In this document: one piece after another, positions 3,917 to 63,196 of the stretch
How the letters are laid out: every line of letters starts with the position of its first letter
Position numbering within the stretch: the first letter of the stretch is position 1
IMG/VR virus record: IMGVR_UViG_3300046714_000236
Span: 30,230 to 94,229 of that record
From: a virus
Direction: 5' to 3' (one strand)
DNA length: 64,000 bases
The notes under the pieces: generated by a model
Database searches by the model: none
Seen by the model: only the letters and a program-made list of their open reading frames with translations
What the model was told of the DNA's origin: nothing
Program-made: the position numbers and the translations under genes

Positions 3917-3933
3917 CCCCCGAGGATGCCGCC

Positions 3934-3953
3934 GACCGACATCGATGTCGGTC
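3934..3953. repeat. 20-bp palindrome copy 1 (perfect to 24 bp, 3932-3955)
   Basis: ccGACCGACATCGATGTCGGTCgg. Confidence 0.97.
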
Positions 3954-3959
3954 GGAAAA

Positions 3960-4056
3960 GGGTGGGCAGGGATTCTCACCCTGCGTTCGCGGTATTTGTG
4001 CGCACCTATTCCCGCGCTCCGACTAGGCCGGTGCCGGCATCACCGACAAGCCACCC
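3960..4056 (-). ncRNA. candidate tRNA-like structured RNA
   Basis: Terminal stem GGGTGG/CCACCC stacked on a GCAGGG-TGAGAAT-CCCTGC T-arm-like hairpin, followed by TTTT. Confidence 0.35.
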
Positions 4057-4075
4057 GCGCAATGGAATGCCGCGC

Positions 4076-5260
4076 TCAATTGAACTGATTCAGGACCACG
4101 CGTTGCGGGAGGATGAGCGCGATCCGGGGAGGCGTGATCGTCTGCCCGGGGAGCCCGTTCGCCCGCGAGAGCTGGAAGCTCAGATCTTCCCCGTACTCCC
4201 TGAGCGAGATCGAAAGCATCGTCTCCCCCTGCTTCGGCAGATACGTCTTGATCACGTTCGCGGAACCGATCGTGCTCGGGTCGCTCGCGCTCGGCCGCGC
4301 CTGCGCTCGCCGTAGGGCCGCCATGCGCTGGAACCGGGCACTGGACGCCGCCATGAACTCCGCCTGCGTCTGCGCCCCGTGATAGTAGGAAGCCGCCCTG
4401 AGCAGGCTCCTGACGTCATTGGAGAGGCTCAGCTGCTCGGGCCCCTTCCGAGAGATCGAATCGACGAACTCGTTCGCGACCGAGACGGCATCGCTCGCCG
4501 CCGCCACGACTAGGTTCGCGACCGCGTACGGCTGGTCCCTCGCCGTCTTGATCACGTTGGTCAGGTGCCCGAGCCGATTGCTCACCGCCTGAGCGAGCCG
4601 GGAGAACTGCGACACGAACGCCCGAGGAGCGTCCGCCATGTTCTCCAGATCCCCGAGCGTGAACGTCGACGCGCTCTTCGGGTGATCGGCGTTCTCCGAG
4701 ATGATGCGCGACGCTGCCTCGTAGCCCGCTGCCGTCGCTGCCTTCAGGTTCGCGTCCCTTGCCGCCGCGAGAATGTCGTCCTGCTGATTCGGCTTCTGCG
4801 TCGTCGTGTTCCGCCCGGTCCACTCGAAGTTGATGTCCCACTGAATGTCGTTGGAACTGCGGTGCTTGAACGTCGTGGTCTCCATGCGACCGAAGCGAGT
4901 CACGCGCCGGCCCTCGTTCGCCCACACCACGACGAGCGGCTGCCCTTCGCGCTGAATGCCTTCGAGCGCGTCGCGGAGCTCGTCTGCGAACACGACGTTG
5001 CGAGACGAGCCGCCGTTCTGGGAGAAGAGACACGGCGCCGCGATGAGCCGCGTCGAGTTCCATTCCCCGTTCCACTTGCTCGGGAGCTCGATGGGAGTGA
5101 TCACGTGCTGCACGCCGTCGGGGTTACCGGGGTTCCACGTCGTGTCGATCTTCGTGCGGCTGCCCCACTCGGCCCAATTGAACGGGAGCCCGCCCCCGAT
5201 GAGATCGACCTGCCGCTTCTTACCGGAGAGCTCGCGGATCGTGATGATGCTCGTCGCCAC
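4076..5260 (-). CDS. tail tube initiator/baseplate protein with C-terminal LysM-like domain
   Basis: C-terminal YLPKQGETMLSISLREYG...LSRANGL; tube-like N-terminus; synteny. Confidence 0.65.
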   Translation of the reverse strand: MATSIITIRELSGKKRQVDLIGGGLPFNWAEWGSRTKIDTTWNPGNPDGVQHVITPIELPSKWNGEWNSTRLIAAPCLFSQNGGSSRNVVFADELRDALEGIQREGQPLVVVWANEGRRVTRFGRMETTTFKHRSSNDIQWDINFEWTGRNTTTQKPNQQDDILAAARDANLKAATAAGYEAASRIISENADHPKSASTFTLGDLENMADAPRAFVSQFSRLAQAVSNRLGHLTNVIKTARDQPYAVANLVVAAASDAVSVANEFVDSISRKGPEQLSLSNDVRSLLRAASYYHGAQTQAEFMAASSARFQRMAALRRAQARPSASDPSTIGSANVIKTYLPKQGETMLSISLREYGEDLSFQLSRANGLPGQTITPPRIALILPQRVVLNQFN

Positions 5261-5272
5261 GCGAGGAGGATA

Positions 5273-5865: not shown

Positions 5866-5885
5866 GCCCGACATCGATGTCGGTC
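5866..5885. repeat. palindrome copy 2
   Basis: GCCCGACATCGATGTCGGTC. Confidence 0.95.
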
Positions 5886-5886
5886 C

Positions 5887-6525
5887 TCAGTCCCCGAGCA
5901 TCTCGCGCATCCAATTGTTCAACTTGGCCTGCATGAACCCGAGCATCTCGAACCACGGCACGCGAGGGGGCGAGCGCGTGTCGGCGTTCGCGTTGACGAT
6001 GATCTTCATCCCGACCGCACGGCGCGCCGAGAAGATCACGATCCTGTCGTCCTCGCGAACGGCTTCCTCGAACCGGGCTCGAAGATCTTCGATGTCCTTC
6101 GCTTCCCACGCCGCCGTCCCGTCGACGACGGAGAGCGAGGGAGCTTCGGGCATCCGCGGCAACTCGTCGGTGTACGCGCTCCGTTCCAGATCGCGTCGCA
6201 CCTCGGGCGAGTTCACGATCCGCCTGAAGTTCGCGAGCCCTTCCGCGCGCCGTTCGTCGGTGAGCCTCGGCCCTTCGTTGATCGTCACCGCCGCGATGCG
6301 TTCGACCACGCCCGGCCGCGGAGCTCCCTGCGCTCCGCGCTCGTACGCTTCGGCAGTCTTCGCCGTGAGCGTGTCGATCAGTGCGAGCAGTTCAGCAAAC
6401 TCGATCGCGCGATTGCAGACCGCGCACCGCGCGCCTTCCTTCGTGTAGTGCCCCGTCAGCGTCCGCACTTCGATCCGCCCCGGACACGGGAGCAAGCTTC
6501 GCCGGTCGAGCGCCCCGCAGATCAT
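5887..6525 (-). CDS. hypothetical protein (N-terminal Cys motif)
   Basis: ATGA overlap with the upstream gene. Confidence 0.55.
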   Translation of the reverse strand: MICGALDRRSLLPCPGRIEVRTLTGHYTKEGARCAVCNRAIEFAELLALIDTLTAKTAEAYERGAQGAPRPGVVERIAAVTINEGPRLTDERRAEGLANFRRIVNSPEVRRDLERSAYTDELPRMPEAPSLSVVDGTAAWEAKDIEDLRARFEEAVREDDRIVIFSARRAVGMKIIVNANADTRSPPRVPWFEMLGFMQAKLNNWMREMLGD

Positions 6526-6827
6526 GAACGGAGCTCCGGAAAGATGTTGGTTGGATCCCACTTCACCTCGCCGCGCTTCACCGCCATCCGCATCCCGAGC
6601 GGGGGCTTCACTCGCATGAGCCATTCGGCCATGCCGCCGTTCTTCCACATCACTCCACCGAGCGTCGTCGCGAACTCTTTGAGCGCCATGTCCGTGCGCG
6701 TCTTCAGCGCTGCGATCCGCGCGTCCCTCGGTTGCATGAAGACCAGCGCGTCCATCGCGTACCCGACCTTCCGCGAAAGCGCTCGCCTGCGCCTGAGCCG
6801 CTGTCGTTCGCGTTCTACTTTTCCCAT
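6522..6827 (-). CDS. hypothetical protein
   Basis: Part of an overlapping small-gene chain. Confidence 0.5.
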   Translation of the reverse strand: MGKVERERQRLRRRRALSRKVGYAMDALVFMQPRDARIAALKTRTDMALKEFATTLGGVMWKNGGMAEWLMRVKPPLGMRMAVKRGEVKWDPTNIFPELRS

Positions 6828-9273: not shown

Positions 9274-9639
9274 TCAGCGGTCCGAATTGGCGAGAGCGTG
9301 CGCCATCGCGAGCGAGATGCGATCGACGCTCTGCTCACGGTTCGCCCCGAACGTCTTCGCGAGCGCGTCGACAACGAGCCCCGAGATCTGCGCACGCACT
9401 TCGGGCTTCGCGAGCTCTTCCCGGATCACCTCGATCGCGACTCTGAGCAGGGCGTTGTCGGTCGCTTCCTGCAGCTTGCTCGGCTTCTTCGCCGCCCACC
9501 TATCGGCGCCCTCCTGAGGCTTCATGAGGTTCGCGAGCGCCTCGGTGATCATCTGCTTCCGCTCGTCGGGGGAGATCTTTTGGAAGAGCGCCTCCACCAC
9601 GAGATCGCGCAGCTGTTCGTCTGACAGGTTGAGGTTCAT
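9274..9639 (-). CDS. helical hypothetical protein
   Basis: CATCCT 7 nt upstream; amphipathic helices. Confidence 0.65.
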   Translation of the reverse strand: MNLNLSDEQLRDLVVEALFQKISPDERKQMITEALANLMKPQEGADRWAAKKPSKLQEATDNALLRVAIEVIREELAKPEVRAQISGLVVDALAKTFGANREQSVDRISLAMAHALANSDR

Positions 9640-9664: not shown

Positions 9665-9684
9665 GACCGACATCGATGTCGGTC
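9665..9684. repeat. palindrome copy 3 (perfect to 22 bp)
   Basis: gGACCGACATCGATGTCGGTCc. Confidence 0.97.
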
Positions 9685-9703: not shown

Positions 9704-10174
9704 TCATTCGACCGCGAAGCCCTTGTCGAGCAGCCGGCTCTCCATGTCGTCGAGCGCGGCGCGCACGCAGTCGGTTTGCCGGTTGTCGAGGAGCGCCATC
9801 AACGCCTCCAACCGAGCGCCGCCGTCGAGCACGGCGCGACCGATGCGCACTAGGTGCCGCTGCCCGAGCGCGACCGTGTGTTGGTGCGGAGTGAGCGCGG
9901 CGCGGTACGGAGCCGGGGGGTTCTTCTGAGCGTCTGCCATCTCCGGAGGATGCGGCCCGATCACCGTCGGCACTACCGCACCCGTGTCTTCGGGCCCGCG
10001 GGCTCGCGTCTGCTCTCGTGCGCGATCTGTGCGCCGCTGCCGTGCTGCGTCTTCTAGCGCCGCCGCTCGCTCTTCGGCCTTCGTGAGCGGCCGCCGAATG
10101 ATCTCCTGTTCGCGCTCATCGAACTCGGCGTCGTCCCGGCTGTAGACCCACGGCTTCGGGAACTCGCGAGACAT
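9704..10174 (-). CDS. hypothetical protein
   Basis: MSREFPKPW start, 7 nt after CATCCT. Confidence 0.55.
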   Translation of the reverse strand: MSREFPKPWVYSRDDAEFDEREQEIIRRPLTKAEERAAALEDAARQRRTDRAREQTRARGPEDTGAVVPTVIGPHPPEMADAQKNPPAPYRAALTPHQHTVALGQRHLVRIGRAVLDGGARLEALMALLDNRQTDCVRAALDDMESRLLDKGFAVE

Positions 10175-10268
10175 CCCCCCGAGGATGCCGCTCAGTGCCC
10201 GTACCCGCCTCGGAGAGCGCTCGCGATGGCGAGGAGGAAGCAGATACCCCCGAGAAGCGCGCGCACGC

Positions 10269-10982
10269 TCAGAGCTTCTTTTGGAGCGTCGCGTCCGCCC
10301 ATGCCCGCATGGCTGCGATCTCCGGATCGTCGGCCGCGTTCGCTGCCTCACTGAGCGCCGTCTCTGCCGCCTCGACCGCGGCCTTCGCCTTGTCGCGTGC
10401 CGCGACCGCCTTGTGTGCCGCTGCTGCCGCCGCGCCGTGGTCTGGCTCGTCTCCCGATGCGGCGTCGTCCGCTTCCTGCTGTGCTTCGGTCGCTTCGTCC
10501 TGCGCCTCGGTGAGCGTCGCGATCGCATCTTCGACGGCACTCGGATCGAGCCCAGCTTTCTTGTGCTCCTCGGCTCCTTCGAGGAGCTCGTTCGCCCGGG
10601 CCACCATCTCAGCGATCTCGGCCGACGCGTTCCCCGCCATCTGCGCGTAGCTCGCCGCGTCCCCTAGCCCGTGCTCCGCCGGGTTTGACGTCTCCGGGGC
10701 GTTCTCGGGATTGGTGGGCGTCTCTGCCTCCGGGTCCGCCGGAGCGTCTGCGGGGGCGTCTGGCGCAGGTGCAGCGGGGTCCGTCGGTTCGTCTTCCTCA
10801 CCCTCGTTCGGATCTTCCTCGCTGGTCGGCAGGAACTCGTCGAGCTCCCCCGCTTCCTTCGCCCGAGTCGCTTCGGCGACGAGCGCCCCGATCTGGTCCT
10901 CGGTGAGCTGTTCGAGGATTGCGGCGACGCCTTGTGACGCGCCTTCGTTCATGAGCCCGGGAAGCAGCGGGAGATCAGCCAT
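10269..10982 (-). CDS. acidic Ala-rich coiled-coil protein
   Basis: TGA-TAGGCT-N7-ATG upstream; A/E/D-rich. Confidence 0.7.
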   Translation of the reverse strand: MADLPLLPGLMNEGASQGVAAILEQLTEDQIGALVAEATRAKEAGELDEFLPTSEEDPNEGEEDEPTDPAAPAPDAPADAPADPEAETPTNPENAPETSNPAEHGLGDAASYAQMAGNASAEIAEMVARANELLEGAEEHKKAGLDPSAVEDAIATLTEAQDEATEAQQEADDAASGDEPDHGAAAAAAHKAVAARDKAKAAVEAAETALSEAANAADDPEIAAMRAWADATLQKKL

Positions 10983-11024: not shown

Positions 11025-11044
11025 GACCGACATCGATGTCGGTT
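11025..11044. repeat. palindrome copy 4
   Basis: GACCGACATCGATGTCGGTT. Confidence 0.95.
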
Positions 11045-19950: not shown

Positions 19951-21354
19951 TCAGGAGCCGAGCGCGAACTCCAACATGAGCGACCGCTTCACGATCTGCG
20001 GGCCGCCCGAGCTGATGTCGGTCGGGATCGGGAAGCCACCCGTGTAGCTCCACGTGCACGACACGATGTCTTGCGTCCGGTTGACCGGGCTCCGAAGGAT
20101 CAGCGAGATGCGATCCGTCTTCACTTCGATCCCTTGGTTCGTGATGTTGAAGCCGCCGATCTTGCCGGTGACTCCCGCTTCACTCACGTAGCGCTTCTCG
20201 TCGAGCCAGCGCTCGTAGATCGCACCGCGCCCCGTGATGACGACGCGACCGACGCGAACGCCGGTGTAGTTCACCACCTCGGCGTTGATGCCCTTCGCGA
20301 ACTTCGCGCTGCCCGCCGTCGTGATGAGCGCGCCCGAGTTCGAGTCGTCCGGCGTCTCGTTGTTGAGGAAGAACGCGATCCCCGCGCCCGTCCCGATGAA
20401 CGCCGACTGATACTGAATCGAGTCGGGACGCCCTTGGTTCAGGCGCTGCATCACCTGATCGGTGAAGATCTGGCCGTTGCCCTCGGGGCTGATGTGCGCG
20501 TGAAAAAACCCGTCTTCGTGTGGGAACACGTTGTTTTGACGGAGCTTGTTCGTCGCGTTGATGAAGTCCTGGTACTGCAGGATGTCGTTCGCCTGCAGTG
20601 CATCGACTGACGTGCCGCCACCGGCGCGCATGATGATCGGGCGCGTGCTCGCGAGGACCGAGCTACGGATCGCCACGCCTGCGCCGACAGTGCTGTCGAG
20701 CGCGAGCGTACCGGGACCGAGCGGGACCGCGGGATCGTACGGCGTCGCGCCGATCACGTTCAGGCTGATCGGCGTGGTGCCGCTCATGAGCGTGATGGGG
20801 AGCGGTGCCGCCGTCGAGACGGGCGTCGGGCGCACGGTCGTACCGCGCGTGATGACGCTCGTGAACCCGTTGAGGCTCGCGACCTGAAGGAACGTGTCAC
20901 CCGTGAGCGCGGCGACGATGAGCGCCGTCGAGCCCTGAAGGTACGCGGTGCAGAGCGCGTTCCTCGGGATGCGGTTCAGCGACTGCCCCGCCTGAAGGCC
21001 GAGCTGCTGAATGCTCCGGAGGAAGATGTCGCTGTTCGCGACCGCGTTCGTCGGCATGTCGACGTCGATCGTGCCGATGTAGCGATCGAGGCGAGCAGTC
21101 CATTGCTCCCACGTGAGCGCTTGCGGCTCGGGGTCGACACCGGGCACCGCGGGATCCGTGATCGGATCGAGCAGGCCGGCGCGAGTCATGAGGATTTCCT
21201 GGCCGGTGTTGCCCTGCCACTCTTCCTCTTGCGCTTCGCCCCTGAAGAGCATCGCGGGGAAGAGCCCATCGTGGAACGCGCGCTCCAGTAGGCCAGTCTG
21301 AACGAGGTTCAGGATCGTCGGAGGTACTCCGAGAACGATGCCGTTGGTCTCCAT
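19951..21354 (-). CDS. major capsid protein (HK97 fold, with insertion)
   Basis: LGLQAGQSLN, KLRQNNV..GFFHAHISPE and PVNRTQDIVSCTW motifs; follows the scaffold. Confidence 0.85.
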   Translation of the reverse strand: METNGIVLGVPPTILNLVQTGLLERAFHDGLFPAMLFRGEAQEEEWQGNTGQEILMTRAGLLDPITDPAVPGVDPEPQALTWEQWTARLDRYIGTIDVDMPTNAVANSDIFLRSIQQLGLQAGQSLNRIPRNALCTAYLQGSTALIVAALTGDTFLQVASLNGFTSVITRGTTVRPTPVSTAAPLPITLMSGTTPISLNVIGATPYDPAVPLGPGTLALDSTVGAGVAIRSSVLASTRPIIMRAGGGTSVDALQANDILQYQDFINATNKLRQNNVFPHEDGFFHAHISPEGNGQIFTDQVMQRLNQGRPDSIQYQSAFIGTGAGIAFFLNNETPDDSNSGALITTAGSAKFAKGINAEVVNYTGVRVGRVVITGRGAIYERWLDEKRYVSEAGVTGKIGGFNITNQGIEVKTDRISLILRSPVNRTQDIVSCTWSYTGGFPIPTDISSGGPQIVKRSLMLEFALGS

Positions 21355-21503
21355 GTCGATTCACTCCCTGAGATTTGATCCGCGCCGGAATGGCGTCGGC
21401 TCGTGCGCGGCTCGTGACTCGGGGAGGACCACTTGTTTGGGACCGCGAGTGGACGCGGGAGTGAATCAACGGTTGCCGCTGTTGATCTGACTCCAGAAAC
21501 GTA
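21355..21503 (-). promoter_or_regulatory. capsid promoter (TGA-TACGTT) and structured 5' leader with anti-SD helix
   Basis: 21457-21470 is complementary to 21355-21368, which carries the SD; competing hairpin at 21465-21486. Confidence 0.55.
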
Positions 21504-21545
21504 TCAGGGCTCCGCACCCTGCACAAGGATCGCGGAACCCTGATG

Positions 21546-21565
21546 GACCGACATCGATGTCGGTC
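21546..21565. repeat. palindrome copy 5
   Basis: GACCGACATCGATGTCGGTC. Confidence 0.97.
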
Positions 21566-21572
21566 GGAGTCG

Positions 21573-22472
21573 CTACCAGCTTTTTTTCATGCCCTGGCGG
21601 TTCATGTACTCCTTCAGCTGCTTGTCGTTCATCGAGTTCGGGAGCCCGGGACGCGGCGTCAAACCCGCGAGCGGATCGGGCGCCGCGGGAGCGGCCGCAA
21701 CCTTCGGCGGGACCGGCTGCTTGCCGTTCGTCGCTGGCGTTCGCACGGGAGGCTTCGGCGCCGCCGCGGGAGCTGCAGCCGCGGGGGGAGCGGTGAGCTC
21801 AGCGGGAGGCGCGCCCGTCGGTGCCTCGACCAGTTCCTGATTCTCCTTCGCGTACTTCGCGAGCCACGCGTTGATCGCAGCGCGTCCGAACTTCCCTTGC
21901 TCCGTCTTCGTGAGCTTCGCGTAGTGCTGCGCCATCTGATCGTTCACGAACGGCACGAACTTCTCTTTGAACTTGTGCGATGCGACGAGCGCGCGCACCT
22001 CGGCGTTCTGCTTCTGCGCAAGCGTCTGCGTCTTCTGATCTTCGAGCTGTGCGGTGAGCTCTGCGATCTTCGTCGTCGCCTTCTGCAGATCGGCCTTCAG
22101 CTGATCGATCTCCGTCATCTCGGAGCGCTTGCGCGCTTCTGATTCCTCACGAAGGCGCGTGAGCTCTTCCGCGTCCGCTTGCCGCTTGACCCTGAGCTTC
22201 TCGACTTCCGCCGGATCGTCCGTGCCGAACTCGGCCTTCAGGAGTCGCTTGCGCTCTGCCTCGCGTTCCTTCCGCTTCACATCCGAGATCGCTTCTTCCG
22301 GCACGGGGCTACCGCCGCGACCGAGCACGGGCGCAACGGGTTCGACGGGAGCGGGCTCGATGGGTGGAGGCGCGGGAGGCGCGACCGCTACGGGCGCCGC
22401 AGGGGGCACGACGATCGCGGGAGGCGGCATCGGGGGAGCTGGGTTGACGGGTGCGACGGCAGGTTCTGTCAT
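21573..22472 (-). CDS. capsid scaffolding protein
   Basis: Pro/Ala-rich ends and a coiled-coil core (RSEMTEIDQLKADL); precedes the capsid gene. Confidence 0.8.
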   Translation of the reverse strand: MTEPAVAPVNPAPPMPPPAIVVPPAAPVAVAPPAPPPIEPAPVEPVAPVLGRGGSPVPEEAISDVKRKEREAERKRLLKAEFGTDDPAEVEKLRVKRQADAEELTRLREESEARKRSEMTEIDQLKADLQKATTKIAELTAQLEDQKTQTLAQKQNAEVRALVASHKFKEKFVPFVNDQMAQHYAKLTKTEQGKFGRAAINAWLAKYAKENQELVEAPTGAPPAELTAPPAAAAPAAAPKPPVRTPATNGKQPVPPKVAAAPAAPDPLAGLTPRPGLPNSMNDKQLKEYMNRQGMKKSW

Positions 22473-22491
22473 GAATTGGTTCTCCTACTAA

Positions 22492-45025: not shown

Positions 45026-46944
45026 CCGAGCACCTCGACGCGAGAGCCGTTCGCCCCCGCTGTGATCTTGATCCTACGCGGGAAGCTCGCGAGGAGCGCG
45101 GAGTCGTGCGCCGTCACGAACGATTGTTCTACCCCGTACTCGTCCGCGAGCATGGCAACTAGGTGCCGCGTCACCGCGTGACGGTTGAACGCATCGAGCG
45201 CACCAAAGGGCTCGTCGATACACGCCACGCGCCACGCCGATCCCCGCATCGCTCGGAGCCAGGCGTTCGCCGCGAGACGCACCGCGAGCCCCGCCAGATC
45301 TTCCGCGCCACCTGAGAGCGGGGAAACAACAGCGCGGAACTTGTGTTCGAGCTTCATGCCCCGCGCCGCGTTGCACGACGTGCACGCCTTCACCTTGCGC
45401 GAGGAAGGGAACGGGAGCCCGCACGTCGCACAGTGTTCCGCGGGTTGCTGCGTCTCGCGCGCCCATTGGAACGAGATGCCGAGCACGACGCCGCTCCGCT
45501 GCAGGAGCTCGTTCGCGCGCTGCTCGATGAGCGAGAGCATCCGTTCCGCAACTCTCCGCTGAGCGCCGCCAGGCCCGAGGATGAGCAGAGCTTCTCGGCG
45601 CGCCGTGATCTCGGGCAGGAGCGCGAGCACCTTCGCCCGCGACTCTTCGGCGCGCTTCAGGTGCTGCGCTTTCCACGCTTCGTTTCGATCGAGGATCTCG
45701 ATCTGCGATCGAACTTCCTGAAGCTCACGCGCCCAATCCGCAGTCGCCTCGACCGCGGGCTGCGCTTCCGTGTTGAAGAGCACCCACGCGGGACGGAGCC
45801 GATCCTGACGCGCACGGAGATCTTCGAGGTTCGCAGACCAGCGCGAGCCCGCGCGAATCCCATCCGTGATCAGATTCGCGAGCCGCGCCGTTTCGATTGA
45901 TTCCTTCTGCGCCGCTTCGTACTTCGCGTTCGCGGCTTCATCTGCTTTCGCGTTCGCTTCGATGTTCGAGTTCAGCTGATCCTTCGCCGGGCAATCGAAC
46001 CCACCGCGAACCGGACACTGCCCATCGAACTTCCCACGCACGAGCAGGCGCGTCTTCGTCAACGTCTGCCGTGCGACGAGCACCTTCGCCGCCGCTTCTG
46101 CCCCCGTGTTCATCGCCGCCGTGCGCTGCTCTTCGGTGTACGCGAATGGTTCCGCTTTCTCCTGCGCGGTGATCTCGCGCCCGAGCCGTTCGTACTCTTC
46201 GGCGTCGCGAGCGCGTGCCTCGTTCTTCGCGAGCGCAGCGCGCACACCCGCGTCCTTCTCGGTTTTGATCTGCAGCGCATCGGCTCGCGCCTGCAACGCT
46301 TCCCGCGCTCCCGGTTCACCGACATCGATGTCGGTCGCGTCCTGTTCCGACTGCACGGCGATCGCGATCCATCCATCGTGCTCCTTCAAAAGCCGGGTCA
46401 GATCTTCGGCGACGAACCCCGCCGCGTCCCGGACCTTTTCGATCCCGCACCACTCCGCGATCTGCGCCGTCACGATCCCGGGATCTTCGGTGATGAACCA
46501 ATCGACTTCCTTCTGCCGGCTCCACCACGTCGCGAGCTGCTCGTCCTTGCTCGTCCCCGTGAGCCGGTCGAGCGCTTCCTGCGCATGGTCCCCGCGGAGT
46601 TCGAGCTCCGCCCCTTGCCCATCCGGAATCACCACGCGGAGCTTCGTGCTTCCGCCGCGCGTGCGAAACCGTTCGGCGTATGCGCCGCCCGAGAACTCTG
46701 CCTCGACTCCGCCTTCTTCTTCGTCGTTCGTGATCCAGGCGTCTTCGGTCTGCTTCGGATGATCGCCCGTGAGCACGAACCGGATCGTCGCGAGGAACGA
46801 ACTCTTGCCGCTCCAGTTCGAGCGGCGCGGATCTTCTTCCGTCTCGCCCACCACCGCGAACGCGCCGGGCCCGAGCGCGAGCTCGTGCTCTCCTCGGAAC
46901 GGGAGGAAGTTTCGGATCCGAAGCCCTGTGATGATCTCGCTCAT
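45022..46944 (-). CDS. SbcC/Rad50-like ATPase
   Basis: NWSGKSS, central coiled coil with CPV....CP, LSGG and IDEPFGALD. Confidence 0.85.
   Translation of the reverse strand: MSEIITGLRIRNFLPFRGEHELALGPGAFAVVGETEEDPRRSNWSGKSSFLATIRFVLTGDHPKQTEDAWITNDEEEGGVEAEFSGGAYAERFRTRGGSTKLRVVIPDGQGAELELRGDHAQEALDRLTGTSKDEQLATWWSRQKEVDWFITEDPGIVTAQIAEWCGIEKVRDAAGFVAEDLTRLLKEHDGWIAIAVQSEQDATDIDVGEPGAREALQARADALQIKTEKDAGVRAALAKNEARARDAEEYERLGREITAQEKAEPFAYTEEQRTAAMNTGAEAAAKVLVARQTLTKTRLLVRGKFDGQCPVRGGFDCPAKDQLNSNIEANAKADEAANAKYEAAQKESIETARLANLITDGIRAGSRWSANLEDLRARQDRLRPAWVLFNTEAQPAVEATADWARELQEVRSQIEILDRNEAWKAQHLKRAEESRAKVLALLPEITARREALLILGPGGAQRRVAERMLSLIEQRANELLQRSGVVLGISFQWARETQQPAEHCATCGLPFPSSRKVKACTSCNAARGMKLEHKFRAVVSPLSGGAEDLAGLAVRLAANAWLRAMRGSAWRVACIDEPFGALDAFNRHAVTRHLVAMLADEYGVEQSFVTAHDSALLASFPRRIKITAGANGSRVEVLG
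46317..46336. repeat. palindrome copy 11 (inside the SbcC CDS)
   Basis: CACCGACATCGATGTCGGTC; encodes TDIDVG. Confidence 0.95.
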
Positions 46945-47327
46945 AGTCCCGCTCGCGCAAGCGCGTCTTCGATGACGGCGCGCAGCTTCTCCGGATCCAT
47001 GCTGTACGAGTTTCCGAGCAGCCAATCGATCGCCTGCCGCGCCGTCTCTGCCGTTGCAGGGCTCGCGTTCGCTGCTTCATCGGGGAGCGATCGATCGCCG
47101 CCGCGCGCGGGAGCAAACCAAACGTGACGGACGCCGTTCTGTTTGAACTCGCGTGCGATGTCTGCGCGCTGCGCTGCCGTCGTTCCGCGCTCGGGCACGA
47201 GCTTCGCGATGTCCACGTGCGGAACTCCCTGCACCGGGAGCACCACCGTCGCGAGCTCCCACGCGCCCGCGATCTTTCGCACGCGCGGATCATCGAACGC
47301 GGGTCGCACTTCTGATCGTCGTCGCAC
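46941..47327 (-). CDS. probable stand-alone C-terminal part of SbcD
   Basis: SD GGAGG then GTG; lies between the phosphoesterase and SbcC. Confidence 0.5.
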   Translation of the reverse strand: MRRRSEVRPAFDDPRVRKIAGAWELATVVLPVQGVPHVDIAKLVPERGTTAAQRADIAREFKQNGVRHVWFAPARGGDRSLPDEAANASPATAETARQAIDWLLGNSYSMDPEKLRAVIEDALARAGL

Positions 47328-49593: not shown

Positions 49594-50934
49594 TCATCCG
49601 CCCCGTCGACGGGAGGGGGACCGAAACGAAGCCGCGGGGGCCGCTCCTGTGCCCGCCTGAGGCGCCGCCGGGGTTGAGGGGGCTACCGCCGACGTCGGAG
49701 GGGAAGCGGCCGCAGAGCGTCTCCTGGGAGGGGGCTTCGCCGGTTCTTGCTTCGGGGGGTCGGGAATGAGCATCCCCGTTTTCAGATCGTACCGCGCGCC
49801 GCAGTGCGGGCAGGTGTCCATGACGGTCGTCATGGTGCCCTCGCACTTGTCGCACGCGACTTCCTCGGGAGGCTCCACCGCGGGAGCGCTCTGCACGCTC
49901 GGAGCCGAGCTGCTCGCCGCTTGTCGCTTCTGTTCGCGCGCTGCACCGAGCTCGTCTTTCCACGGCTCTTCGGGTTCTGCGTCGAGCTCGTCGATGATCG
50001 CCATCGCCGGACCGAAGAGCTCGTCCCACGGGAACTCGATCAGCGCGTGCGCCTCCATGCTCGCGCGGAGCTTTCGCGGATCACCCGCCCTGAGCATGTC
50101 GGAGATATCGGGGGGCGCCTGCTCGAACACCGCTTGGATCTGCGGAGTGAGCTGAATGCTCTGCCGGCGCACGGCGTCGTACTTGTCCGCGAAGGTTTTG
50201 TTCTTGTCGTACGTCCAGTGAAACCCGTACGGGTGGATCCGCGGATCGCCGCCTTCGCCGATGTCGGCCATCAGATCCTTGATCACTTTCTGCACACGCT
50301 GCCCGAGCGTCTGACTCTCGCGCGTGATGAGGCAACCCGCGCCGGGGTCCTTCGCCGAGACGACGCGGAAGATGTACTGAAGCTTCGCGGCGCTCTCCTG
50401 CTTGAAGACTTCCGACTGCTTCACCTTGATCGAATCGAGCGCGAGCTGATCTTCTTCCGAGAATCCCTGCTTTGGTTCTTTGAAGAGACCGCAGAACCCA
50501 CCGGCGCGAACGATCGTCGACGGTTCCCCGGGCGCGTCGAACTGGAAGATCGGCGTCAGCCAGTCGAGCTTCTGATCGTTGATCTGATCTCGGATCCATT
50601 CGATCGTGAGGCAGAGGGGGCAGACCGCCGGAGGGTGTTCGCGGCGATCGTCGTCGTCGCGGAACTTCTGCTTTCGCAGGATCTGTTCCGTTTCGAGACA
50701 ATTGAAATCGTCGCTGAAGATCTTCGTCACATCGCGATCGAGTTTCTTGTCCTTGTACGTCGTGATCTTGTACCAGCTGTGAGCCCACAGCGCGGCCGGG
50801 AGTCCACGCGGGTGCAGGAAGACATCGATCTCCCCGTCCTCTCTCCACTTCTCCAGAAACCCACCGCCGCCCGCGTTCCCCGAGTGACCGAGGAAATCGT
50901 CGAGGCTCATCTCGTGACTTGCAGTCCGTCCCAT
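49594..50934 (-). CDS. putative ssDNA-binding protein (gp32-like) with C-terminal Zn ribbon
   Basis: H..C...CPLC core; CDKC/CPHC; lies between UvsY-like and recA. Confidence 0.55.
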   Translation of the reverse strand: MGRTASHEMSLDDFLGHSGNAGGGGFLEKWREDGEIDVFLHPRGLPAALWAHSWYKITTYKDKKLDRDVTKIFSDDFNCLETEQILRKQKFRDDDDRREHPPAVCPLCLTIEWIRDQINDQKLDWLTPIFQFDAPGEPSTIVRAGGFCGLFKEPKQGFSEEDQLALDSIKVKQSEVFKQESAAKLQYIFRVVSAKDPGAGCLITRESQTLGQRVQKVIKDLMADIGEGGDPRIHPYGFHWTYDKNKTFADKYDAVRRQSIQLTPQIQAVFEQAPPDISDMLRAGDPRKLRASMEAHALIEFPWDELFGPAMAIIDELDAEPEEPWKDELGAAREQKRQAASSSAPSVQSAPAVEPPEEVACDKCEGTMTTVMDTCPHCGARYDLKTGMLIPDPPKQEPAKPPPRRRSAAASPPTSAVAPSTPAAPQAGTGAAPAASFRSPSRRRGG

Positions 50935-50947: not shown

Positions 50948-50967
50948 GACCGACATCGATGTCGGTC
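50948..50967. repeat. palindrome copy 12
   Basis: Perfect 20-mer, 13 nt upstream of the SSB-like start. Confidence 0.97.
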
Positions 50968-55426: not shown

Positions 55427-56071
55427 TCATGCCGCGCGCGTGCATCGCTGCACCGCCCGGCGAACAGTCGACTGGGCTTTCGCCTCACTCCAGAGACGGA
55501 AGACACGGCACGTGTCCGGGTCTTCCCAGAGATCCCGAGCGGCTTCGTTCAGATCGCCCTCGGCTGCAATGACGGCGCAGATCACGTATCGATCTTGCTC
55601 GTCGAGGTGCTCCATCGCGGCGCTCACCCGAGCGAGCACCCGAGCGTTTGCGTCGGCCCGTTCGATCCGCTCGTCGACGTCGGGGGGCGCGCCGAACAAT
55701 TGATCCTCCTGCCACTCTTCCAGACCGAGCCGCGCGAGTGACACCGGGTGTCGGCTCGGTGCATCCCCGTCGCGCCGCAGAGAGGCGCGCTGCTTGTGAA
55801 GCCACTTCTTCCCTTTGTCGCAGGCGTTCCACACGATGAACGTATCGATCGGGACGCCGCGCTCCGGGTTCCACTCCTTCAGGAAAGCCCACGCGGCGAT
55901 CAACATCTCCTGCTGAACGTCGAACTCTTCTACCCCGTCGGGGGCTTCCCATCGCCTGAGGAGGTAGCGCGCGAGCTTCCTCCAATCGTTCGCGGTTTCT
56001 CTGCAAAACTTCTCGAAGGTGATCTCATCCGCTCGCAGGGCGGTGAGCGCCTGCGCCATGTTCGTTTTCAT
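55427..56071 (-). CDS. phage-encoded sigma-70-family RNA polymerase sigma factor
   Basis: Region 2-like DVQQEMLIAAW...WNPERGVPIDTFIVW; region 4-like AMEHLDEQDRYVI...LNEAA. Confidence 0.75.
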   Translation of the reverse strand: MKTNMAQALTALRADEITFEKFCRETANDWRKLARYLLRRWEAPDGVEEFDVQQEMLIAAWAFLKEWNPERGVPIDTFIVWNACDKGKKWLHKQRASLRRDGDAPSRHPVSLARLGLEEWQEDQLFGAPPDVDERIERADANARVLARVSAAMEHLDEQDRYVICAVIAAEGDLNEAARDLWEDPDTCRVFRLWSEAKAQSTVRRAVQRCTRAA

Positions 56072-56116: not shown

Positions 56117-56146
56117 CCGAGGACCGACATCGATGTCGGTCCTCGG
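56117..56146. repeat. palindrome copy 13 (perfect over 30 bp)
   Basis: CCGAGGACCGACATCGATGTCGGTCCTCGG. Confidence 0.97.
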
Positions 56147-56163: not shown

Positions 56164-57279
56164 TCAGGCCGCGACGATTGCGCCGGCTGCCGCCTGAAGG
56201 TCGAGCTTCCGTTCCTCGTCCTTCACGCTGTTCGCGACCCAGCTCAGCGCGTTGCTGAACCGGTACGCCGTCTGACCCGCGGGGAGCATGAGCACGTCGT
56301 CGCCTTCGTACGCCTGCTTCACCGCTTCCTTTTCGCCCTTCGTGAGAAGCGCGCCGATCTTCTTGAACATCGCCGCCGAGTTCACCTCGGTCGCCGCTGC
56401 CGCTTTGATCACGTTGATCCGCTTCTCGATCGCGGCCGGCGCGAGGAGAGCCCGCACGACGTCCGTCGTCGCGCTCACCATCGTCGCCGTGTCCTTGCGG
56501 TACGTCTCCGCGCTGAGCTCGATGTTCTCGGGGAGCCGGCCGCCGAGGTGCACCTGCTTGATCCCGTTCTCGCCCACCATCCCGTTCAGGCAGACGAGCC
56601 GAAGAGCGAACGCCGACACGGAGTAACCCGCTGCGCCGAAGTCGCTGTTCGTCTGCGAGAGCCCGAAGACCACGAACTCGCCCGGGATGGGCTCGAAGAT
56701 CTGCGGGATGATCGCGCGCACCGAGTAGCGGAGATCCGTCGCGACGCCTTCCGTCGGCAGGGCGCCGATCGAGTTGCACGCGCTCACGAACGCGTCGAGC
56801 ATCGGGCGTCCATCGAGCCGGCGGAACTTGTCGGAGAGCACGCCGCGAACCTGCCCCTCGACGGTGCGCATGAGGTAGCGCTCACCCGCGTGATCGAGAT
56901 GCTCGCGCATCATCTTGCCGAAGAGATCCCGCTTCCAACCGGAGTCTTCGCCCGCGACGCAGAGATCGTCCGCGTAGCTGTTCGGAATGCTGAGACGGTC
57001 GCAGAGCTGCCGTCGCGCGTGACGGTGCATCCCGCGGAGCTCGCCCTTCTCACCGAAGGAAACTCGGAGCTCGCCTTCCTTCGTCATGAGCCCGCGAACC
57101 GCGGTCGAAGAGACGATCCGATCTTCGGGGATCGTGCTGAGCACTCGCGAGATGACGGAGCCGGCCGACGCCTTGCCGTTCTCGATCACCGTGTTCAAGC
57201 GAGCGCGTGCGATGGCGCGCACGTCATCCGACTGGGTGAGGGTTGCCGGGGTCCGCGTGATGTTGCTGATCGTGTTCAT
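56164..57279 (-). CDS. DUF932-family protein
   Basis: VRGVLSDKF...TNSDFG...RLVCLNGM...H; SD AAAGGA sets the start at MNTIS. Confidence 0.75.
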   Translation of the reverse strand: MNTISNITRTPATLTQSDDVRAIARARLNTVIENGKASAGSVISRVLSTIPEDRIVSSTAVRGLMTKEGELRVSFGEKGELRGMHRHARRQLCDRLSIPNSYADDLCVAGEDSGWKRDLFGKMMREHLDHAGERYLMRTVEGQVRGVLSDKFRRLDGRPMLDAFVSACNSIGALPTEGVATDLRYSVRAIIPQIFEPIPGEFVVFGLSQTNSDFGAAGYSVSAFALRLVCLNGMVGENGIKQVHLGGRLPENIELSAETYRKDTATMVSATTDVVRALLAPAAIEKRINVIKAAAATEVNSAAMFKKIGALLTKGEKEAVKQAYEGDDVLMLPAGQTAYRFSNALSWVANSVKDEERKLDLQAAAGAIVAA

Positions 57280-57313
57280 TTGGTGGGTTTCCTTTTTCTG
57301 CGCCTGAGCGCCA

Positions 57314-57375
57314 CTGGACAAACCCACTATAGGGGACCGACGGCCCCCGATGCAAGCACCCCGTGATCTTTTTTT
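57314..57375 (-). promoter_or_regulatory. sigma-70-type early promoter copy B
   Basis: A-tract, TTGCAT (57350-55), 18 bp, TATAGT (57326-31). Confidence 0.75.
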
Positions 57376-57376
57376 C

Positions 57377-57676
57377 TCAGTGCGCCGCTGCAGCCTTTTT
57401 AGGCTTCTTCCGAACGGCGCGCACTCGATCCCGAGTCTCGTAGCTCCCCTTGGCTTCATCGGGGATGGGGTACCCCGCCGACTCGAACCGGATGAGCCAC
57501 CGCTTCAGCGTCCGAAAGTCGATCCCGATCAGCGTCGCGACCTTGCGCCCGCTTCGGTGCTTTCGATAGAGCGCCTCCACTTCATCCCGCACGAGCCGCG
57601 CCTCACGCGCGAGGAGCCCGGGAAGGATGGACGGCTCGCGAGCCGCGAGCGCACGGAGTCGGGGAGACGCTGCCAC
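57377..57676 (-). CDS. HTH protein
   Basis: GRKVATLIGIDFRTLKRWL. Confidence 0.65.
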   Translation of the reverse strand: MAASPRLRALAAREPSILPGLLAREARLVRDEVEALYRKHRSGRKVATLIGIDFRTLKRWLIRFESAGYPIPDEAKGSYETRDRVRAVRKKPKKAAAAH

Positions 57677-57695: not shown

Positions 57696-57917
57696 TCAGG
57701 CAGGCGCCATCAGGGGCGACGCTTCCGGAGCTCCGAGCCCGCACACCGTCGCCGCGTAGTCCGGATCGGCCGATGCCTTCGCGAGCATCGCCGCGAACGC
57801 TTCTGCGTCCCCGACCTTATCGGCCGCCGCGCTCTCGTTGATCTCTTCGAGTAGTGCACTCGATTCCATGCCCGCGGCTGCGTCGATCAATTGGTCGATG
57901 GTGACTTGCTCGTCCAT
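57696..57917 (-). CDS. small acidic protein
   Basis: SD GGAG. Confidence 0.5.
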   Translation of the reverse strand: MDEQVTIDQLIDAAAGMESSALLEEINESAAADKVGDAEAFAAMLAKASADPDYAATVCGLGAPEASPLMAPA

Positions 57918-58147
57918 GGTGTCTCCGGAGTGAGGAAGCGGCGACGCCGATCCCGGATCTCTTCGATCTCGGTAAAGAGGCTCGCACGGTGCACGAGCTT
58001 GTACAAGTGACGCCGACCGATCCCGAGCTCGTGCGCGGTGCGCACCATGTTCGCCGCGGTGCGGTCGAGCACTTCGAGCAGCTCGGCCCGCTGCCGCTCA
58101 CGGCTTACCCGACCGGCGAAGCCGATCGCAGTGTGTCGGTAAGACAT
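57887..58147 (-). CDS. Fis-type HTH protein
   Basis: LLEVLDRTAANMVRTAHELGIGRRHLYKL. Confidence 0.7.
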   Translation of the reverse strand: MSYRHTAIGFAGRVSRERQRAELLEVLDRTAANMVRTAHELGIGRRHLYKLVHRASLFTEIEEIRDRRRRFLTPETPWTSKSPSTN

Positions 58148-60657: not shown

Positions 60658-60901
60658 CGGGCGCGCAACTCATCACGACGTACCCAAACGGCACGCCGAA
60701 CGCAGGGCCCCGCAAAACGTAGGTGACTTCGCGCACAACATCTCGCCCGCTGTAGAGCCCGGTCTCGTGATCCCATTCCCGGAGGTGAAGCAGATCACCC
60801 ACCGCGAAGCCGCGATCGTCCTTCCGGAACTCGAACGTCTTCGTGCCGCGCAGAAGTGCGGTGAACGGTTCGGGGTGACACTTGAGCCCGTGGGTTCTCA
60901 T
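60644..60901 (-). CDS. DUF3850/ASCH-domain protein
   Basis: HGLKCHPEPF...GTKTFEFRKDDRGFAVGD.L.LREW. Confidence 0.85.
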   Translation of the reverse strand: MRTHGLKCHPEPFTALLRGTKTFEFRKDDRGFAVGDLLHLREWDHETGLYSGRDVVREVTYVLRGPAFGVPFGYVVMSCAPDAKA

Positions 60902-61791
60902 GCGCCTTCGTAAACTTCCTCACCGGGGACCATCTTTCTAAATTGAATCCAGCCTTCGACGTTGCCGAGAAAATGCCGCACGCGCCCCGTGCGCTCCCAC
61001 TTCTTCGCGGCCCCGTTCCACTTCTGTTCGTGATGCTGAAAGAGCGACAGTTCATCGCGCGTCATCGGCCGGCACGGATGTTCGAGCGGGCTCATGTGCC
61101 CGTTCGAGATCAACGTGTCGCAGAGTTCGACATCCTTCGCCGGTGCACGCTCACCGTCGTGCGTGAGGTACGAGACTCGCGCGCACCTGCCCGCGCTCAC
61201 CTTCGCCGGATCGTGCCCCGTCACTTCGAGATCGAAGTCCTCCGAGCCAACCATCGGCAGATGCCAGCGATCGTCCGCGAGCAGCGTGGGATCGGACGCG
61301 CGGCGCGCTTCCTTCATCATCACCGCGATCGTTTTGATCTCGGGCTGCGCCATCTTCGAGTCCCTGAGGTTCTCGAAGTTCTGCCACTCGGTGCCCGTGA
61401 CGATCACAGTGTGCCAGGCGAACGGCTCGATCACTCGGTTCGCGAGCTGCTTGTGCACGCCCGCATCCGCAAGGTGCCGTGCGTTCTTGATCGCGTCCCA
61501 CGTCGAGCGCTCCCACCACGCAGCGGCTTCGCGCGCGTCGTGTTCTCCGAGCTCCTCGGTCGCCTGCATCCCGCTCTGATTCTTGCCGAACGCGACCGGC
61601 GCGAACGGGTCGAGCTCGATCATTCGAATGCGCTTCTCGACCGGAATCGCGCGGCTGCTCGCGCTGTTTCGGGAGAGCACACGGTGCGTGTTGAACTCCG
61701 CGAGGATGATGCGCGGGAACGTGATCTGAAACGACGTGATCCGGAACTCGTACTGCGAAATCGAATCGGCCAGAACCTTGCACTCGTACAT
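60898..61791 (-). CDS. thyX: FAD-dependent thymidylate synthase (ThyX-like)
   Basis: EFNTHRVLSRNSASSRAIP, HKQLANR and GHMSPLEH. Confidence 0.85.
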   Translation of the reverse strand: MYECKVLADSISQYEFRITSFQITFPRIILAEFNTHRVLSRNSASSRAIPVEKRIRMIELDPFAPVAFGKNQSGMQATEELGEHDAREAAAWWERSTWDAIKNARHLADAGVHKQLANRVIEPFAWHTVIVTGTEWQNFENLRDSKMAQPEIKTIAVMMKEARRASDPTLLADDRWHLPMVGSEDFDLEVTGHDPAKVSAGRCARVSYLTHDGERAPAKDVELCDTLISNGHMSPLEHPCRPMTRDELSLFQHHEQKWNGAAKKWERTGRVRHFLGNVEGWIQFRKMVPGEEVYEGA

Positions 61792-62201
61792 CAGGGAACC
61801 TCCGCGCGAAGGCGCGCGACTTCATCGTTGCAAAACTTTTCCATGACAGTGATCGCGCGCACGTCGTTCGGTGCGGACATCGAGAGCAATGCTCCGAGCA
61901 CCTGCCCGAGTACCGTATGATCAGAGAGTCGCGCGATCAACGCAGGCGCCCGCCAGTAGCCACCATCCCACGCGCTCGCCCCGGTGTATGAGAGCAGGCG
62001 CGTCGCCTCGCGGCGAAAGCACCACGCGGCCTTTTCGAGATCTTGGATCTCGGCTCCCTTGAGCTCGCGTCTCCAGACGTACTTCACCGCGCTCCCGAGC
62101 ATCGCCGAAAGATGCTCCGTCACTTCGACAGTTTCGATCCCGCTCGGGTGCGAGTTGTAGCCCTTCGGCGAGTTGACCGGATCGTGCGGCTTGTTCGTCA
62201 T
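61791..62201 (-). CDS. DUF3310-domain protein
   Basis: DPVNSP.GY.SHPSGIE...G.AVKY.WR...K....DLEKA.W. Confidence 0.8.
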   Translation of the reverse strand: MTNKPHDPVNSPKGYNSHPSGIETVEVTEHLSAMLGSAVKYVWRRELKGAEIQDLEKAAWCFRREATRLLSYTGASAWDGGYWRAPALIARLSDHTVLGQVLGALLSMSAPNDVRAITVMEKFCNDEVARLRAEVP

Positions 62202-62219
62202 GGGGGTGAAGAATGCCGC

Positions 62220-62666
62220 TCACTTCTTCGGGCGCGCGCGTTCCTGCGCCACACGGTAGTCCGTGATCATCGCGGGCGAGAACTGCAGCCGCCATCCGAT
62301 CCGGAACCCGCCGCTGTCCCCGTCCCTGCGCTTCTGCTCGCGCGCGTCTTCACGCCTCCACGTCCATCGAATGAACTCGAACACTTTTTCGGAAGAGCCG
62401 AGCGCCTTCAACGCAAGTCCCGCCATCGCACACGCCGCGAAGAACGAAGGCCCGTCGAGCTCGTCGGGGCGCACGCTGTAGACGCGTTCGTGCAGGAGCG
62501 AGTAGAGCCCGACGAGCTCGCGCGCTGATGCGTTCTTCCAATCACGCGCCGCCGCGTTCTCTTCTGCCCGCTGGCGCGCCGCCGTGTGATGCGCGGCGCA
62601 CACCTTCGGCCCCTTCTTCGCGGCGCGCTTCTTCGGCGCACCATCGGCGAACTCGCCGAAAGACAT
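62220..62666 (-). CDS. hypothetical protein
   Basis: ORF; start uncertain (62666 or 62699). Confidence 0.5.
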   Translation of the reverse strand: MSFGEFADGAPKKRAAKKGPKVCAAHHTAARQRAEENAAARDWKNASARELVGLYSLLHERVYSVRPDELDGPSFFAACAMAGLALKALGSSEKVFEFIRWTWRREDAREQKRRDGDSGGFRIGWRLQFSPAMITDYRVAQERARPKK

Positions 62667-62722
62667 CTCGCGCGATGCCCCAAGCTTTGGTCGCGGCATC
62701 GGCGGGCGCGCCGATCGCGTTC

Positions 62723-63196
62723 TCACTGCGTGACCTTGTGCTTGTCGACGAGAACGCGGAGCTCCTTCAGGTGTTCGATGTAGCGGAGCGAGCTGATCTC
62801 GAACTCCGCTTGGAAGAGCTCTTCGCAGAACCGGTGCAAGCGGAGCCACGCTTGCTCGCCCGTCTCGCCTTCGCGCACCTTCGTGCTCGCGCGCACGGGT
62901 CCGACGGTGAACGTGTTGTACGCGATCGGCGCGAACGTCTCGGGCCCGAGCGATGCACTGAGCTCGTCCCCGACTTCTAGGACCGACATCGATGTCGGTG
63001 CTGCGCTCGGAGTGCGCTCGCCGCCGCGCCCCTGCGTGAGCGCGAGCTTCACGTCATCCGCGGTCGGTGCCGCCGGCTTCGCTTCGCTTGCGGAGGGGGC
63101 GGGGGGGAGCCTCGACAGCGCTTGCGCGAGATTCTGTTCTCCCTGTGCTGCCGTCGGAACTCCGCTCGGGGCGATCACGTCGCTGCGTCGTCTCAT
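62723..63196 (-). CDS. hypothetical protein
   Basis: CATCCT 7 nt upstream. Confidence 0.55.
   Translation of the reverse strand: MRRRSDVIAPSGVPTAAQGEQNLAQALSRLPPAPSASEAKPAAPTADDVKLALTQGRGGERTPSAAPTSMSVLEVGDELSASLGPETFAPIAYNTFTVGPVRASTKVREGETGEQAWLRLHRFCEELFQAEFEISSLRYIEHLKELRVLVDKHKVTQ
62981..63000. repeat. palindrome copy 14 (inside a CDS)
   Basis: GACCGACATCGATGTCGGTG; encodes PTSMSV. Confidence 0.95.

Follow-up and report, generated by a model that had tools for sequence, protein, structure and literature searches.

Why does a phage carry one short palindrome, unchanged in its core, at many sites along its genome? The question is raised by a 64,000-nucleotide stretch of DNA (hereafter, the window) that comprises bases 30230-94229 of the 94,229-bp virus record IMGVR_UViG_3300046714_000236. 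The record has a 127-bp terminal repeat and represents a soil phage that we call G000. The original prediction described 14 copies of a palindrome with an invariant 16-bp core, 1.4-10.5 kb apart, and proposed that they are sites for a dimeric DNA-binding protein. We find that the element is real, is under selection and is a family trait with lineage-private sequences, an aspect that the original prediction overlooked. We favor, with a probability of roughly 45%, the reading that this selected cis-signal, private to the phage, provides duplex binding sites for a phage-encoded homodimer that would act on transcription genome-wide.

An exact match count bore out the 14 copies at the positions predicted. 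There are exactly 14 matches to the 16-mer CCGACATCGATGTCGG in the window, with cores starting at 3936, 5868, 9667, 11027, 21548, 24306, 28213, 31010, 38351, 40884, 46319, 50950, 56124 and 62983 and gaps of 1.36-10.5 kb. The full-genome count that had been proposed as a check gave 19 exact copies, 1.4-10.7 kb apart. No copies with one or two mismatches were found in the window (about 0.11 matches expected at up to two mismatches), and allowing up to three mismatches added a single match in the window, against 1.1 expected. Isolated 8-bp half-sites show no excess (6 versus 5.5 expected). With 19 exact copies, no near-copies and no surplus of half-sites, the element is thus all-or-none. Variation among the G000 copies is confined to the outer 2-3 bp, largely in line with the outer 2 bp originally reported. 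Flanks are unrelated between copies, except for GA/TC, often GGA/TCC, which lengthens the dyad to 20-22 bp.

Two scenarios that would have explained the repeats away did not hold. Sites are spanned without a single difference by contigs from two other soil or rhizosphere samples, and they persist in a strain with about 5% divergence. Independent assemblies therefore rule out an assembly or library artefact. The other scenario was a dense, host-wide repeat of the repetitive extragenic palindromic (REP) kind. Among the matches listed from 185,579 species genomes there was no host-wide repeat of the 16-mer, only scattered single copies, with the caveat that the host may not have been sequenced. 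In viral and prokaryote collections the matches listed were also scattered single copies, with no locus related to the phage, and the 20-mer appeared in metagenomes as 13 single copies in unrelated DNA. As a separate observation, four unrelated metagenome contigs (L251, L252, L254 and L255, 25-51% GC) each contain the 20-mer once, extended to AACTGACCGACATCGATGTCGGTCAGTT, a longer palindrome that is common to the four and lies in low-GC DNA.

The copies are evenly spaced. In all nine genomes tested (G000 and relatives described below), spacing was more even than random (coefficient of variation 0.37-0.67 versus about 0.93; combined P ~3e-14), at 3-6.6 kb, with short and long gaps both trimmed. 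Spacing in G000 is also more even than a random choice among gene boundaries (P = 0.003). The sites are conserved between strains as well. The relative G001 and its strain L037 are 86-98% identical around sites, and four sites that they share show 0 changes in 88 palindrome positions, compared to 51 changes in 799 positions of the 100-nt flanks (P ~0.003). This pair has no single-site presence/absence polymorphism. Palindrome-bounded indels were considered for the same pair and rejected, as only one of four indel borders lies near a site.

A motif count in related phages, another check that had been called for, revealed private palindromes in most of them. Relatives with TerL proteins 30-41% identical to that of G000 define a large uncultured group of phages whose genomes are mostly 70-100 kb. 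We compared 19 complete or near-complete genomes (G000 and 18 whole records fetched for this purpose) and found that 13 carry their own private dispersed palindrome, with 9-30 copies each. In 12 of these 13 systems the palindrome is a perfect even-length dyad with a central CG. The systems are as follows:

G000 (present phage), GGACCGACATCGATGTCGGTCC, 19 copies
G001, GACGGATGATCGATCATCCGTC, 17 copies
G002, CCACCGCACGGCGCCGTGCGGTGG, 26 copies
G003, GACGCCGGATCGATCCGGCGTC, 17-19 copies
G004, ACCGCAACACGTGTTGCGGT, 30 copies
G005, GGGGAAACCCGGGTTTCCCC, 16 copies
G006, GATTGGAAACCCGGGTTTCCAATC, 18 copies
G007, CCGTCGGTGATCGATCACCGACGG, 19 copies
G008, CTTCGGAAGATCGATCTTCCGAAG, 14 copies
G010, AATGGAAWCCCGGGWTTCCATT, about 13 copies
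G012, ACGGAAACACGTGTTTCCGT, 9 copies
G014, GACCAAAAAGCGCCTTTTGGTC (quasi-palindrome), 10 copies
G015, ACCGCGCCGCGCGGCGCGGT, 16 copies

No palindrome system was found in G009, G011, G013, G016, G017 or G019. Where relatives have one, the copies lie 2-17 nt past a stop codon and 10-40 nt before the next start, with a few copies in genes. The family genomes are syntenic, and only some palindrome junctions are common to genomes. G000 and G001, for example, share a junction just before the capsid gene and another at a tail gene, where their motifs differ. A quick TerL tree does not group the genomes by motif class, and the nearest relatives of G000 on that tree are L035, with another motif, and G009, with none. 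Searches by DNA and by exact peptide words found no close relatives of G000, and no isolated phage is closer than 31% in the capsid protein. The G012 palindrome (9 sites) is a 16-bp dyad centered on CACGTG. Bacterial parS has the same center and 16-bp dyad format, with other half-sites.

The symmetry of these elements is a property of the DNA duplex. Dyad centers in the family are of at least four kinds (TCGA, CCGG, GCGC and ACGT). In an RNA hairpin these four central bases would form an unpaired loop with no reason to be self-complementary, which supports reading at the DNA level. Variation within genomes is one-sided and uncompensated, internal positions in G010 included: position +/-4 of that palindrome is A or T independently in each half, leaving 4 of 13 sites mismatched. 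Position +/-11 in G001 pairs in 8 of 17 sites, versus about 9 expected by chance. One-sided variants in G008, examined for G-U wobble, involve a base that belongs to the neighboring Shine-Dalgarno (SD) sequence. We also count the all-or-none invariance for a DNA reading, because structure alone would not require it. Copies inside genes keep the full sequence and occupy tolerant linkers.

Most copies mark gene junctions. Nearly all G000 genes are on the minus strand, and 11 of the 19 sites start -2 to 18 nt past the minus-strand stop of a frame that is open for 50 codons or more. Four more lie about 50-70 nt past such a stop, one follows a short hydrophobic open reading frame (ORF), one (genome position 11853) is flanked by divergent starts and does not follow a gene, and two are clearly within genes; copies in coding sequence number at most 4 of 19. 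Nine of the 11 sites at -2 to 18 nt lie in the window; the original prediction had copies often 0-22 nt past a minus-strand stop. The 14 window copies are:

3934-3953, palindrome copy; class B -10-like motif GCATCCT 7 nt downstream on the minus strand, then ATG
5866-5885, palindrome copy; 1 nt past the stop of minus-strand ORF 5887-6648, with GCATCCT 4 nt downstream, then ATG
9665-9684, palindrome copy; past the stop of 9704-10540, with GCATCCT 14 nt downstream, then the ATG of 9274-9639
11025-11044, palindrome copy; 3 nt past the TGA of a short hydrophobic ORF, with TGATAGGCT (extended -10-like) at about 28 nt downstream, then the leaderless ATG of 10269-10982
21546-21565, palindrome copy; 7 nt past the stop of 21573-22472, with TGATACGTT and the major capsid gene's long leader downstream; at the same junction, G001 too has a palindrome
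24304-24323, palindrome copy; 0 nt past a stop, with TGATACCTT about 25 nt downstream, then the leaderless ATG of 24040-24264
28211-28230, palindrome copy; within the portal gene 27915-30122, codons 631-636, encoding TDIDVG
31008-31027, palindrome copy; 0 nt past the stop of 31028-31387, then SD-like GGGAAAGG and the GTG of 30417-30992
38349-38368, palindrome copy; 10 nt past the stop of the helicase gene 38379-40337, with GGAGG and ATG 12 nt downstream
40882-40901, palindrome copy; 7 nt before an ATG, in a context that is ambiguous because alternative ORFs overlap the copy
46317-46336, palindrome copy; within the SbcC/Rad50-like gene 45022-47025, codons 230-235, encoding TDIDVG
50948-50967, palindrome copy; 6 nt past a stop, then AAGGAG and the ATG of 49594-50934
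56122-56141, palindrome copy with arms lengthened to 15 bp; 14-22 nt past the stop of 56164-57459, with the sigma-like gene 55427-56071 at 52 nt downstream
62981-63000, palindrome copy; 53 nt past the stop of 63054-63875

Both clear in-gene copies in G000 thus encode the same peptide. The copy in the portal gene falls in a hypervariable linker of the protein that is flanked by conserved blocks, and the SbcC gene of G002 likewise holds one of that phage's own palindromes. Next to the copy at 3934-3953, directly upstream on the transcribed strand, we noted a distinct hairpin, GCAGGG-TGAGAAT-CCCTGC (window 3960-4010, minus strand), with a short T-run 7 nt past its stem.

Promoter-like sequences often follow the palindromes. 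A -10-like motif lies within 45 nt downstream of 8 of the 19 G000 sites, at a variable distance from the palindrome. These motifs are of two classes, TGnTAnnnT and GCATCCT, and a start codon follows 6-7 nt later in a leaderless layout; other sites have only an SD sequence and start codon downstream. A scan of window positions 20001-40000 detected 0 sigma-70-type -35/-10 promoters, compared to 2.1 in shuffles. A fixed -35-like geometry for the palindrome in G000 was considered and is ruled out by spacer lengths of 14, 17 and 24. In G007 the palindrome sits 0-3 nt upstream of 6 of 8 extended -10 promoters of the form TGsTAGssT, and in G003 it adjoins 5 of 11 such promoters; fixed palindrome-plus-promoter cassettes are seen in these two genomes. 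Both -10-like classes also occur across the window (TGATAnnnT, e.g. at 10998, 24280 and 5275; GCATCCT, e.g. at 3929, 5864, 9653, 9270 and 51804).

These features suggest how a bound protein could act. At junctions of genes or transcription units, it could stop or insulate read-through RNA polymerase; where a -10-only promoter directly adjoins a site, occlusion or tuning of that promoter is a further possibility. This mode would resemble that of Cluster A stoperators (PMC9283540, PMC6550527) or of KorB-OB in IncP plasmids (PMC11790492). Invariant multi-site operators have precedents (PMC9283540, PMC6550527, PMC11790492, PMC4351075). Read-through RNA would also fold into a hairpin, and some relatives appear to have made true terminators of it. 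The dimeric DNA-binding protein of the original prediction is still the best reading, given the perfect dyads, uncompensated variation, even spacing and purifying selection, but it is unproven and no binder was found. Further support for it comes from the site between divergent starts, the -10-like motifs next to sites and the lack of a T-run at all 19 G000 sites.

The gene content of G000 offers several possible readers. The phage encodes a set of replication and recombination proteins (DNA polymerase A, DnaB-type helicase, primase, beta-clamp, RecA and SbcCD), as well as ThyX, two DNA methyltransferases (one with a ParB-like N-terminal domain), two small helix-turn-helix (HTH) proteins and two sigma-like proteins. 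One sigma-like protein has region 2 only (55427-56071) and the other, of 167 aa, region 4 only (genome 4215-4718); the beta-clamp gene is at 36381-37610. Split sigma-like genes, a beta-clamp and two -10-like classes recall T4 late transcription. No match to an integrase, repressor family, transposase or RAYT/HUH enzyme was found among about 110 G000 ORFs, a missing match not being proof of absence. The candidate readers are:

57377-57676, minus strand, small ORF, weakly matching HTH_28 and lacking homologues in relatives; reading frame uncertain
57887-58147, minus strand, 86-aa Fis-type HTH_8 protein adjoining the primase gene
41617-42921, plus strand, ParB-like N-terminal domain fused to an N6/N4 DNA methyltransferase

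The duplex-site reading meets difficulties here. No reader protein was identified, and an all-against-all comparison of 10,421 ORFs from 13 genomes with palindromes and 6 without detected no protein family that tracks them. The HTH and ParB-like proteins that can be recognized are of two kinds, those private to a lineage and only weakly matched, and those also present in palindrome-free relatives. The Fis-like HTH protein (57887), one of the binders originally suggested, has homologues in relatives both with and without palindromes; another, the protein at 54258, also occurs in palindrome-free relatives, as does a conserved 395-aa zinc-ribbon protein. The ParB-like methyltransferase (41617) fares no better, as its fusion is not conserved in palindrome-bearing relatives. 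Its ParB-like domain is seen at PHROG level only (Pfam ParB_N finds nothing in G000), and of 21 family genomes, 17 have Pfam ParB_N proteins, irrespective of palindromes. Methylation gating through the ATCGAT center, also suggested originally, is not a family property, because other lineages center on CCCGGG, GGCGCC, CACGTG or ACCGGT. Beyond the search for a reader, the finding that sister lineages have unrelated motifs or none is not what simple co-evolution of protein and site predicts, and the G014 element is a quasi-palindrome rather than a perfect dyad. Its center is asymmetric, with 8:2 orientations among same-strand genes (e.g. G014:168, 8946, 21248, 33210 and 57006); the more frequent orientation gives the mRNA-sense hairpin an additional G-U pair. 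The region 4-only sigma-like protein was examined separately as a reader and rejected, its sole homologues being in palindrome-free relatives.

Further points against a purely duplex site come from the folded strand, and they lend weight to an RNA hairpin, the main rival, which we regard as possible though doubtful. On this view the transcribed palindrome would terminate or attenuate transcription, stabilize 3' ends or mark processing, and would delimit transcription units as the stem-loop of PeSL cassettes does; its uniform sequence would reflect reading by a phage-specific RNA-binding factor or the spread of whole cassettes by recombination. A perfect DNA palindrome yields the same hairpin from either transcribed strand, which would suit an RNA-reading factor. 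The hairpins are stable (-12 to -19 kcal/mol when folded), and lineages retain folding potential despite their different sequences. Placement right past stops and just before promoters or SD sequences matches terminators and RNA 3' stabilizers too. At 11 of 120 family sites (about 9%) there are at least four extra site-specific complementary pairs, versus 0.6 sites expected, and some G002 sites are textbook A-tract/hairpin/T-tract terminators, with sites 24984 and 50884 having the A5/T5 tracts typical of bidirectional terminators. These extra pairs and terminators point to a role for the folded strand. The palindrome-plus-promoter cassettes of G003 and G007 have a precedent in PeSL (PMC2839356, PMC4122927), and in window positions 20001-40000 the phage is otherwise without canonical terminators: a consensus scan found six terminator-like sites (hairpin plus T-run), fewer than in shuffles. 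None of the six coincides with any of the six palindromes in that interval, however, and none of the 19 G000 sites has a T-run after the stem. Several sites precede SD-led genes that have no promoter and so need read-through, and the two in-gene copies would be harmful as sites of cleavage or termination. Self-complementary loop bases in 12 of 13 systems, the lack of compensatory changes and the tolerance of internal mismatches all fit a hairpin poorly. Even spacing is not expected of one either, and Rfam returned 0 matches at the gathering threshold in the window.

Even spacing would fit a DNA role outside transcription, in which the sites would serve loading or nucleation of a spreading or bridging ParB/KorB-type clamp, genome organization, recombination-dependent replication or packaging, and coverage of the whole DNA would be what matters. 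We consider this unlikely. It would account for the trimming of both short and long gaps and for copies inside genes where no intergenic gap is at hand, and the sites have a suitable format, being perfect dyads of 16-24 bp centered on CG. A CG at the dyad center is also found in parS, NBS and OB sites. The OB sequence is given in PMC11790492. The ParB_N proteins of the family, the ParB-like domain of G000 and the core genes for SbcCD and RecA are compatible with such a role, but ParB-like proteins also occur in palindrome-free G011 and, weakly, in G009, and in the G000 protein the methyltransferase fusion leaves no room for a ParB-type HTH. A role of this kind would not need the strong bias toward gene junctions and promoters. 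A broader version, which we also think improbable, is that the palindromes are a genome-wide 'self' code of this uncultured family of ~90-kb soil phages, used for clamp or coat loading or as starts of SbcCD/RecA recombination-dependent replication. A phage-specific clamp or coat may spread over the whole chromosome to silence, protect or organize DNA, and the site sequence may be swapped between lineages as a specificity module. Least plausible is a selfish miniature element (like REPs, Rickettsia palindromic elements or miniature inverted-repeat transposable elements) that burst in each lineage and has no function for the phage, an explanation to which we give very little credence. Near-identical copies within genomes, patchy presence (13 of 19), unrelated motifs in sister lineages and partly syntenic positions would all be consistent with it. 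So would the in-frame copies in variable protein linkers. Rickettsia palindromic elements, like the in-gene copies of G000, are found in frame within proteins. Even spacing without long gaps in all nine genomes and purifying selection between strains are contrary to a selfish element, as are the lack of any detected transposase, RAYT/HUH enzyme or integrase, of visible target-site duplications or shared flanks, and of single-site polymorphism in the strain pair examined.

Dispersed private dyad repeats are already known, and the closest described cases are the 17-bp repeats of Cluster O mycobacteriophages, which the original prediction also overlooked, and the PeSL cassettes. REPs and bacterial interspersed mosaic elements (BIMEs) are species-specific, GC-rich palindromes present in many copies just past stops. 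REPs are imperfect, have a conserved 5' tetranucleotide, reach hundreds of copies in bacterial chromosomes and are associated with a RAYT gene. The phage palindromes differ from the REP/BIME-RAYT system on each count, as imperfect repeats, the 5' tetranucleotide, hundreds of copies, a bacterial chromosome and a RAYT gene are not found here. Among plasmids, RK2 has 12 OB sites. In the KorB-OB system of IncP-1 plasmids, a dimeric ParB-family clamp silences at a distance from palindromic operators (PMC11790492). Like the phage palindromes, these are identical short palindromic operators that occur about every 5 kb, some next to promoters and some far from them (PMC11790492). The G000 site has the short perfect palindrome of ParB-parS and KorB-OB sites (here a 16-22-bp dyad with a central CG), whereas KorB-OB is a plasmid system with a 13-bp site and the ParB-like proteins of these phages do not track the palindromes.

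Cluster A stoperators (L5 gp71 type) are about 20-35 near-invariant sites at which one phage protein blocks elongating polymerase (PMC9283540, PMC6550527). As with the 19 copies in G000, they are near-invariant and lie in short intergenic gaps genome-wide, and their sequence differs between lineages together with the protein (PMC9283540, PMC6550527). A stoperator, 13-14 bp long, is asymmetric, takes its orientation from transcription and binds the monomeric immunity repressor of temperate phages. The sites described here are symmetric, and no repressor or integrase was found; a perfect palindrome has no orientation, so the asymmetry of stoperators is lacking.

The Cluster O repeats (in Corndog and relatives) are 17-bp dyads of unknown function for which a dimeric protein is suspected (PMC4351075). 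They too are phage-private inverted repeats with invariant arms, spread genome-wide, mostly in short intergenic gaps with some in genes, and they occur in dozens of copies and are absent from the host genome (PMC4351075). The G000 palindrome shares the features of this type (private, with invariant arms, in tens of copies and not repeated in other genomes among the matches listed), which is a descriptive class without a known mechanism. The arms of Cluster O sites are 7 bp long and enclose a variable, asymmetric 3-bp spacer; about one-third of the sites are in coding sequence, and the intergenic ones are reported to be unevenly distributed (PMC4351075). The palindromes here, in contrast, are perfect 16-22-bp dyads that are evenly spaced and have another sequence in each distant relative.

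PeSL cassettes of T4-like phages contain a stem-loop shown to terminate transcription and are thought to drive gene shuffling (PMC2839356, PMC4122927). They resemble the G000 sites as a repeated composite module of stop codon, stem-loop, promoter and start codon (PMC2839356, PMC4122927). Of the 19 G000 sites, 8 have a -10-like motif, at variable distance, while fixed cassettes are seen in G003 and G007. PeSL stems are not invariant perfect palindromes; their conserved part is the sigma-70 promoter, and they cluster in hyperplastic regions beside ORFans. In G000 the promoter distance varies and the sites are spread evenly over core modules rather than clustered beside ORFans, and in the G001/L037 pair only one of four indel borders is near a palindrome.

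What is new is the comparative series, in which 13 related genomes have different palindromes under the same placement rules and six relatives have none. Together with even spacing and measurable purifying selection, this series makes the role of such repeats directly testable. If the palindromes are roadblocks or clamp-loading sites, they would represent a new way to delimit transcription units without canonical terminators, in a lytic-type phage with -10-only, leaderless promoters, and would provide orthogonal protein-site pairs for engineering.

Other sequence features were noted in passing. Relative to a first-order Markov expectation, GTAC is 3.2-fold and GATC 1.7-fold over-represented in the G000 genome, and CTAG occurs at 0.53 of expectation. 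Two of the palindrome-free relatives have repeats of another kind. G011 contains six copies of an asymmetric, promoter-like repeat of about 30 nt (CATAAACCGAAACCCGAACCC..., L066:1372, 1891, 3437 and 8351). G009 contains a CRISPR-like array within the phage genome (L036:2293-3200), with 13 direct repeats (CATCAACAGCCGCGCGAGGCTTCGAGTATCGCGAC) 62-80 bp apart and unique spacers.

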